NCBI GenBank assembly: GCA_964016885.1 | Contig: OZ024757.1 | Location: 18,228,001-18,292,000, forward strand | Source of the DNA: Eledone cirrhosa | Taxonomy: Eukaryota | DNA: 64,000 bases | Direction of reading: 5' to 3' | Shown here: positions 27,362-27,683 of the stretch, in pieces | Numbering within the stretch: the stretch's first letter is position 1 | Layout: every line of letters begins with the position of its first letter | The notes under the pieces: generated by a model | Databases searched by the model: none | What the model saw: the letters and a program-made list of their open reading frames with translations, nothing else | Told to the model about the DNA's origin: nothing | Program-made: the position numbers and the translations under genes

Positions 27362-27683
27362 AACGAAGGAAATGTGGTAAGGAGCCAGGTGGACCATAAC
27401 GCACCAAAGTACTCAATACTTAGGATAGTAGAGTGGGTAATAGGAACAAGTAAGACCCCAACGGCTGAGCTCAAGCCGTTTCGACGGCTAATTCTGGACT
27501 GAATGAAAATTTATTCTGGTATTTAAATAGCCGAGCTTATCAAGGGGTAATTCCATAATGACCATATATGGAATTACCCCTTGATAAGCTCGGCTATTTA
27601 AATACCAGAATAAATTTTCATTCAGTCCAGAATTAGCCGTCGAAACGGCTTGAGCTCAGCCGTCGGGGTCTTACTTGTTCCTA
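27362..27683. mobile_element. Family A longest copy; ~117 bp near-perfect inverted arms around a 9-nt loop
   Basis: Arms 27440-27557 / 27567-27684; complete HHR in each arm. Confidence 0.92.
27576..27669 (+). ncRNA. Type I HHR with U3:A8 core and extended stem II (mirror copy 27455-27548 on minus strand, GUU site)
   Basis: acccc-TTGATAA-g-ct-cggcta-[37 nt]-tagccg-t-c-GAA-ACGGCT-tgagctc-AGCCGT-C-ggggt; predicted cleavage after C27664. Confidence 0.75.

Follow-up and report, generated by a model that had tools for sequence, protein, structure and literature searches.

Structure of the locus

The window is a 64-kb stretch (positions 18,228,001-18,292,000 of contig OZ024757.1) of the 3.0-Gb Eledone cirrhosa genome. 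It carries a head-to-head palindrome set in (TA)n sequence, in which a tailed and a tail-less copy of the same terminal repeat (pLTR) meet at a single added base (Table 1). Each arm bears a hammerhead motif, which the earlier note described as a complete hammerhead on both strands. The motif is present on both arms, but this does not reflect a two-strand design; it is simply the usual inverted 5' copy of Penelope-like insertions. Because the two hammerheads are on opposite strands, no dimer can form in cis. The whole 322-nt stretch was computed to fold as a single hairpin (-233 kcal/mol), and the expectation that a read-through transcript would form a dsRNA hairpin of about 117 bp masking the ribozyme therefore holds. 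Together, the opposite-strand arrangement and the read-through hairpin indicate that the focal copy is probably inert, one such copy among an estimated 200,000 arms. Reading the palindrome as a MITE was rejected, as was a miRNA reading; its Rfam miRNA-family matches reflect only the perfect hairpin.

Table 1. Features of the focal palindrome in window positions; -n/+n numbering is from the predicted cut site (C17 = 27664 on the + arm, U17 = 27460 on the - arm)
Feature	Position	Strand	Basis
Palindrome arms, 117 nt each, 1 mismatch, centre 9 nt	27441-27557 and 27567-27683
(TA)n target, left flank	27350-27361		sequence
Long (tailed) arm, 5'-truncated pLTR copy, -97 to +98	27362-27557	-	98% identity over 196 nt to pLTR of full-length copy L031
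Tail, +21 to +98, 78 nt, one arm only	27362-27439	-	3'-end classes and head-to-head pairs
Hammerhead motif of long arm, core 27543-27537, GUU site	27455-27548	-	sequence and descriptor
Untemplated A, single, at head-to-head junction	27558		template upstream of both arm starts taken from L031
Short (tail-less) arm, pLTR copy, -105 to +19	27559-27683	+	100% identity over 125 nt to L031 pLTR
Type I hammerhead motif, U3-A8 core, predicted cut after C27664	27576-27669	+	sequence, descriptor, subfamily pair counts
Helix I, ACCCC/GGGGT	27576-27580 / 27665-27669	+
Core TTGATAA	27581-27587	+
G10.1 / C11.1; small internal loop	27588 / 27641	+
Helix II, CGGCTA/TAGCCG, loop 37 nt	27591-27596 / 27634-27639	+
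TCAGTC of loop II, A27624 (-40) candidate main transcription start; mirror 27502-27497	27622-27627	+	conservation, 5'-end pile-up, untemplated G
Competing hairpin AGCCGU-CGAA-ACGGCU	27634-27650	+	minimum-energy fold of + arm
GAA	27642-27644	+
Helix III, ACGGCT/AGCCGT, loop TGAGCTC	27645-27650 / 27658-27663	+
Palindromic GAGCTC of loop III	27652-27657	+	6/6 bases kept in all 11 comparators; preceding two bases vary
(TA)n target, right flank	27684-27706		sequence

All 11 family A copies or fragments in the window had been proposed to derive from a ribozyme-bearing terminus. The 11 were confirmed, and the terminus in question was recognized as a pLTR from a Hydra-clade Penelope-like element. A twelfth copy is an older-subfamily fragment (54522-54623), within a fragment of the same element assigned to the older C3-G8 subfamily D (54522-54640). 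Only the focal copy in the window reaches the TTGATAA half of the motif, and no RT-coding remnant of the focal family was found within the 64 kb. Tail-only fragments lie in (TA)n at 10492-10571 and 51485-51554, the first of which covers precisely the interval from one 3' end site of genomic copies to the other. Long degenerate AT-rich microsatellite arrays occupy 3150-3800 and 45900-52650.

Hammerhead motif

Type I hammerheads have a core of the form (C3/U3)UGAN(G8/A8)A...GAAA...UH with a 3:8 pair, and the + arm has UUGAUAA, GAAA, and GUC. All parts could be placed on the + arm and are mirrored on the - arm, which bears out the hammerhead reading of both. The GUC site was previously given as a triplet following stem III; the site is present, but its GU forms the last two bases of helix III. 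The GUU of the - arm is a private change, and the family has GUC. A strict descriptor, with thresholds chosen after the arm was seen, matches the real arm and none of 3000 dinucleotide shuffles of it. An Rfam search of the palindrome gave no match at gathering score, and none of the 22 E-value matches was to a hammerhead family. The 37-nt loop II and U3-A8 pair probably place the motif outside the Rfam hammerhead models, and the family adds a hammerhead form that Rfam misses.

Copies in the genome fall into subfamilies. A1 (TTGATAA) is that of the window, A2 (TTGAGAA) occurs with intact frames, and B/C have TTGAAAA or TTGACAA; E is one old copy (TTGGTAA), and the older D is mostly CTGATGA. Twelve hand-picked rows representing few lineages were aligned, most of them from 76 distinct sequences and two from a further descriptor set. 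Positions 3 and 8 are paired in all 12 (U-A in six and C-G in six), in agreement with the U3-A8 swap suggested earlier, and one helix II pair is G-C in five rows and A-U in seven. The older subfamily combines C3-G8 with compensated helix II pairs. In the 12 rows 87% of helix cells are paired, compared to 28-49% in slid-partner controls. Double changes occur in 7 of the 22 pairs, among few independent lineages, and this covariation fits the type I layout of three helices with the open end at helix I. Because the rows were hand-picked from few lineages, the 3:8 swap amounts to about one event, and the alignment as a whole to few evolutionary events rather than twelve. Read from these sequences, C3-G8 has naturally been exchanged for U3-A8 between homologous subfamilies. 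A metagenome scan yielded eight loci, and the hammerheads seen in five of them are short C3-G8 forms, insufficiently homologous to add covariation.

Four U3-A8 rows match at all 14 core positions, the old E copy at 13, and the D rows at 9-11, and conservation of loop II outside one block falls to 9-15 of 26 positions in D and E. An exact pattern of the core with the start of helices I and II occurs 4,548 times genome-wide, with all four bases at N7. One condition under which the earlier note would have given up its reading was that TTGATAA and the stem I pairing were not conserved in other long copies; with these occurrences, and with positions 3 and 8 paired in all 12 rows, the reading survives it.

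Because sequence is shared between helices II and III, the 3' strand of the former can pair with the 5' strand of the latter and bury the GAA. On the + arm (window subfamily) this competing hairpin is predicted to be 2.4 kcal/mol lower than the hammerhead fold (-27.9 vs -25.5 kcal/mol). The hammerhead is the predicted minimum-energy fold in A2 and lies within 0.8 kcal/mol of the best in B; in two old C3-G8 (D) copies it is predicted to be about 10 kcal/mol worse than the alternative. A swapped-helix dimer, which the palindromic loop III would allow through GAGCTC, is predicted to lie 13.5-16.5 kcal/mol below two hairpins, and this agrees with the dimer model described for such ribozymes (PMC4209133, PMC6765202).

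The motif could be a catalytically dead relic kept as a promoter or protein-binding sequence, which would fit the absence of an Rfam hammerhead match, the misfolding predicted for the window's subfamily, and the absence of a cleaved-template footprint among genomic copies (see below). However, the core is complete in the other U3-A8 rows except for the old copy, N7 varies freely, and both the 3:8 and helix II positions change in compensated pairs. A dead relic is therefore very unlikely, and we have high confidence that this is a real, selected hammerhead. Judged from its sequence, it would likely cleave in vitro under some condition.

Parent element

A genome search with the 118-nt arm gave 1,446 candidates, and all 40 that were scored are 100% identical. 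Arms are 94-100% identical to pLTRs flanking RT frames. One full-length copy (L031), set in (TA)n, comprises an inverted repeat that lacks the tail, a direct repeat, an RT frame interrupted by a frameshift, a 3' UTR, and a further direct repeat that bears the tail. Head-to-tail arrays have units of 3,528-3,545 nt; in the array L041 the tandem units are 3,528 nt with one hammerhead per junction. The hammerhead lies about 278 nt before each ATG in tandem units. A search with an RT fragment returned 30,676 candidates, and all 150 that were scored are 96-100% identical, many of them in 784-codon open frames. From the first Met at +191, the frame encodes about 717 residues with an RT and a putative C-terminal nuclease.

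The element protein has RWR (residue 37), DKT (117), LKDHK, RLINP, YRDD, CNCPDRSIC (572; CxCx5C), CNLC (670; CxxC), and CKH (698; CxH), and GxKF/Y is absent. A candidate GIY-YIG nuclease motif, IY-x-YIG, is found at residues 592-608; a whole-protein fold search listed polymerases only. For the protein model (pLDDT 87), TERT is the top fold match (E 1.8e-8). Neither Pfam nor PDB gave a match when searched with the protein sequence. Relatives numbered 2,216 among 8,000 candidates scored; the 120 matches listed are 38-54% identical and include no informative name.

Penelope-like elements have a single-frame telomerase-related RT, as seen here in the 784-codon frames, the YRDD motif, and the TERT-like fold. 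They also have pLTRs that derive from tandem or partial-tandem copies, an inverted 5' copy, and an optional tail, and these are found in L031 and L041-L045, with one tail in each of 29 head-to-head pairs. An RWK-type motif, DKT in place of DKG, the lack of GxKF/Y, the CxCx5C linker, and the CxxC and CxH motifs mark the Hydra clade (Craig et al., 2021, PMC8557442); all were recognized in a by-eye comparison with the File S4 proteins. The (TA)n bias of that clade is also present, with (TA)n found at the ends of the focal copy and of most sampled arms. The element is almost certainly a young and abundant Hydra-clade Penelope-like retroelement. The Naiad/Chlamys clade (N-terminal nuclease, DKA, no canonical hammerhead) was rejected because the nuclease-like motif is C-terminal, the protein has DKT, and a hammerhead is present. 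A non-LTR retrozyme, in which few-hundred-nt non-coding repeats run head to tail with a whole hammerhead each, was also rejected, as the tandem unit is 3.5 kb and coding and the short copies are head to head without the core. We therefore read the focal palindrome as a 5'-truncated head-to-head insertion of a Hydra-clade Penelope-like pLTR into (TA)n, each arm with a U3-A8 type I hammerhead motif, and we give the explanation of which this is a part a probability of roughly 0.7.

Other features of these copies were recorded. A second GTCGAAACGG lies on the antisense strand of the 3' UTR, and no CUGANGA-like partner was found for it by eye. In L031, a second divergent Hydra-type RT (LKDHK, RLINP) is encoded at 1-700 (-), with the young element inside or beside it, and an upstream partial copy at 5204-5360 (-) fuses a piece of the coding frame directly to the 3' UTR, with about 1.4 kb skipped by internal deletion or template switching. 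The tail region at L041 3431-3517, ending in (TA)n at the same base, is also present in contigs of a second organism sequenced in another study (run X5), so a related species may have a close family.

Ends of genomic copies

Ends were mapped in 140 stretches of 10 kb (1.4 Mb), evenly spaced and chosen regardless of content. The 97 arms in this sample were compared with natural full-length or long copies of each subfamily, and their density of 69 per Mb is the source of the genome-wide estimate of arms. The 3' ends fall at +14 to +24 in 41 arms and at +87 to +100 in 46, with only 10 elsewhere. Every one of the 29 head-to-head pairs joins one tailed and one tail-less arm. The two 3'-end classes and this pairing fit two internal RT starts, as shown in vitro for the starts bounding the tail of the Anolis element (PMC11167929).

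The inverted junction might instead come from self-priming (snap-back) on antisense RNA, with no need for two cDNAs that are primed separately. Palindromes at inverted junctions led to the snap-back proposal for Penelope elements of rotifers (PMC3846280), and some junctions in the present sample overlap by a few bases. But the two arms differ in their 3' ends in all 29 pairs, the 5' ends of the focal arms are unequal (-97 and -105) with an untemplated base between them, and junctions with an extra G on both arms (see below) suggest that each arm reached the RNA 5' end independently. Snap-back is highly improbable, and two separately primed cDNAs are preferred.

The 5' ends of the 97 arms pile up within the hammerhead: 66 lie at -49 to -26, 14 at -25 to -1, none at 0 to +2, and 8 further in, while 8 extend beyond -84 and 1 ends at -56. 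Two arms touch the edge of a stretch in these counts, and where old copies are aligned the ends may be biased. If only arms with 93% or more identity to a reference are taken, 32 of 41 start at -47 to -29, and the junction positions of pairs agree. The commonest ends spread over -34 to -41. Long copies such as the focal one, with 8 of the 97 arms, are rare. No arm starts at the cut site, so cleaved templates have left no genomic footprint.

This last result bears on the source of the long copies and tandem arrays. Their template might have been not uncut linear read-through RNA but a circle of unit length, produced when two successive hammerheads cleave and the RNA between them is religated. 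Circles of this kind were proposed in PMC4209133, and the head-to-tail units of 3,528-3,545 nt with one hammerhead per junction are what they would leave. However, linear cleaved templates would be expected to give arms that start at the cut site, a capped start could not be ligated, and ribozyme mutants left insertion unchanged in the Anolis system (PMC11167929). We consider circles an unlikely source.

Proposed transcription start within loop II

The upstream edge of the pile-up coincides with T-Y-A-G-T, a block that all 12 aligned copies retain in a loop II that has otherwise diverged. The block (TCAGTC in the focal arms) resembles an initiator. A search by eye for a downstream promoter element found none, and an AATAAA in loop II was rejected as a poly(A) signal as it is not kept in other subfamilies.

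The templated base before A(-40) is C or T. In exact counts over the genome, this base is G in 5,050 cases and A in 827, against C or T in 20,304. One base further in, G (1,643) shows no excess over C or T (5,259), and the excess is thus specific to the base before A(-40). None of the first 30 loci with G continues into upstream element sequence. On inspection by hand, microhomology with the partner arm can account for the G in 13 of these, 1 is ambiguous, and in 16 it cannot (a script had flagged 10). Of the first 100 loci listed, at least six carry the G on both arms, with spacers of T, A, CA, AAAAT, none, and A, in three subfamilies; since the spacers differ, each junction was made separately. 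The C/T count is well above the 4,548 occurrences of the core pattern, which means that many arms pass -40 or take the base from the junction, and that the edge is not sharp to a single base.

An untemplated 5' G has been read as a copied cap in LINE-1 (PMC4859970). The 5'-end pile-up with the extra G likely marks the start of the element's transcript, and by this sequence evidence a capped start inside loop II is fairly probable. A partial literature search found no report of a cap-derived G or of a ribozyme-internal start for Penelope-like elements.

The same pile-up might arise from RT stalling at a hairpin in loop II or from a nuclease cut, with the RNA starting further upstream, the ribozyme whole at both RNA ends as in Penelope of Drosophila virilis, and the G a generic addition or microhomology. 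A hairpin of 7-8 bp inside loop II, with its 3' base near -36 to -41, is predicted in A2 and B, and the spread of the commonest ends over -34 to -41 fits stalling, as does partner microhomology in 13 of the 30 G cases. In addition, the D. virilis Penelope transcript starts 46 nt upstream of an intron that ends right next to helix I. Yet this weak loop II hairpin is absent from the A1 predictions, and RT reaches it only after passing helices III and II, which are stronger. Stalling also does not account for a G excess confined to the position before A(-40), for the 16 G cases and all six double-G junctions that the partner arm cannot explain, or for the retention of TYAGT in every row. Stalling or nuclease cleavage is quite unlikely, and a capped start in loop II is the preferred reading.

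A further alternative shares this start site and differs only in the source of the template. Most short palindromes would come from transcripts of earlier short arms with an internal promoter, behaving as SINE-like parasites of the full element whose mirror half is made anew with every insertion. The ratio of short to long arms is about 10 to 1, the promoter of the D. virilis Penelope is internal (PMC2377424), and junctions vary from copy to copy, all of which this model would accommodate. Against it, short arms carry diagnostic bases of subfamilies that also have long copies, and an informal look noticed no family private to short arms. Such parasites seem somewhat unlikely, and transcripts of the element itself are the preferred template.

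Comparison with known elements

Hydra-1_Obim and Hydra-1_Ajap, members of the Hydra clade with a C-terminal nuclease (EN+), share with the present element a single frame with the RWK-type motif, DKT, LKDHK/RLINP, CxCx5C, CxxC, and CxH (Craig et al., 2021, PMC8557442). The (TA)n target, a sense-strand type I hammerhead near the 3' end, the pLTR, the inverted 5' copy, and the tail are likewise described for the clade. The unit is larger here (3.5 kb, compared to mostly <3 kb), and the tail is longer (78 nt, compared to 30-40 nt typically). The Hydra rows of File S2 (PMC8557442) are all C3-G8 with a loop 2 of 3-10 nt and a loop III of 1-3 nt, whereas the present family has U3-A8, a loop II of about 37 nt, and a helix III of 5-6 bp with a palindromic loop of 7-9 nt.

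The minimal hammerheads of Schistosoma mansoni Cercyon also have the U3-A8 swap, a long helix II, a short helix I, and a palindromic loop III region, and are found in pairs on opposite strands, separated by 100-700 bp (Cervera and de la Pena, 2014, PMC4209133). As described there, Cercyon hammerheads have no real helix III and need dimers. The helix III of 5-6 bp in the present family makes a monomer plausible, as in the fungal and protist variants of PMC4209133.

PAc, the Poseidon element of Anolis carolinensis, has two fixed 3' ends bounding a tail, an AT-rich target, and a hammerhead upstream of the RT starts, all as found here (Frangieh et al., 2024, PMC11167929). Its ribozyme needed protein and was dispensable for insertion, and no RNA ends were seen at the cut site. 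Its start codon lies inside the ribozyme, while the first ATG here is at +191, and the available text of PMC11167929 reports neither a transcription start in loop II nor a cap-derived G. In LINE-1, both the extra 5' G read as copied cap and an inverted 5' part from a second priming event have been described (PMC4859970). The G marks short copies of 60-140 nt here rather than full-length copies as in LINE-1, since here priming takes place within the RNA, not far from its 5' end. In D. virilis Penelope the start is upstream of the whole ribozyme (PMC2377424), whereas the proposed start here lies inside loop II.

The genome looks unusually rich in hammerhead-like ribozymes, several of them with a long loop II. 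Among the many distinct motifs that the descriptor picked up in its loci, about five other unrelated hammerhead-like ones have a U3-A8 core (L012, L029, L141, L146, L165, L226, L262). In the window, another hammerhead-bearing repeat (C3-G8, long helix II, palindromic AUGCGCAU helix III) lies at 29002-29072 (-) and 54297-54367 (-). It has 24 related matches in the 1.4-Mb sample and is probably another Penelope-type family. A third hammerhead-like motif, with a CTGACGA core and a ACCTTTGGT helix III, lies at 29806-29873 (-). At L243 6633-7768 and L161 6459-7060, retrozyme-like units of about 525 nt are repeated head to tail, and each contains a whole hammerhead with a GUU site.

Proposed model of transcription and insertion

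In the mechanism that we propose, the element RNA would start, capped, at the A of TYAGT in loop II (-40), with minor starts near -44/-45, and its 5' leader would carry only the 3' half of the ribozyme. An RNA 5' end that lacks the UUGANAA half could not self-cleave in cis. Only in the downstream repeat would the transcript carry the whole ribozyme, and cleavage there would be at the transcript's 3' end. The element protein would nick both strands of a (TA)n site, two cDNAs would be primed at internal RNA sites (+98 and +20), and their head-to-head joining would give one tailed and one tail-less arm. Priming near the cap would run off after 60-140 nt and yield the abundant short palindromes with an untemplated G. 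Long arms such as the focal ones would be primed in the downstream repeat of RNA that was uncut, or religated, at that site. A role of the ribozyme as a 3'-end cutter is a tentative proposal that we rate slightly below even odds. We hold as tentatively the wider proposal that one sequence serves as promoter at the 5' end, where it would be an uncuttable half ribozyme, and as whole ribozyme only at the 3' end, with tens of thousands of palindromes recording both cDNAs running off the cap.

The U3-A8 form, inverted 5' copies, tails, and (TA)n targets have all been published for Penelope-like elements, and the core claim is thus of a known kind. A partial literature search turned up neither the signature of a ribozyme-internal start, nor a Hydra-clade U3-A8 form with a long loop, nor the swap between homologous subfamilies. 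The function of Penelope-element hammerheads and the origin of the inverted ends and tails are stated to be open in PMC8557442, PMC11167929, and PMC3846280. The family described here is young, with many intact copies, and it offers an unusually sharp record in its two fixed 3' ends, single 5' pile-up, and untemplated G. If the proposed mechanism is true, this record would be sequence evidence that the inverted ends of Penelope-type elements arise by twin priming on capped sense RNA, and ribozyme cleavage would sort the transcripts into messengers and full-length templates.
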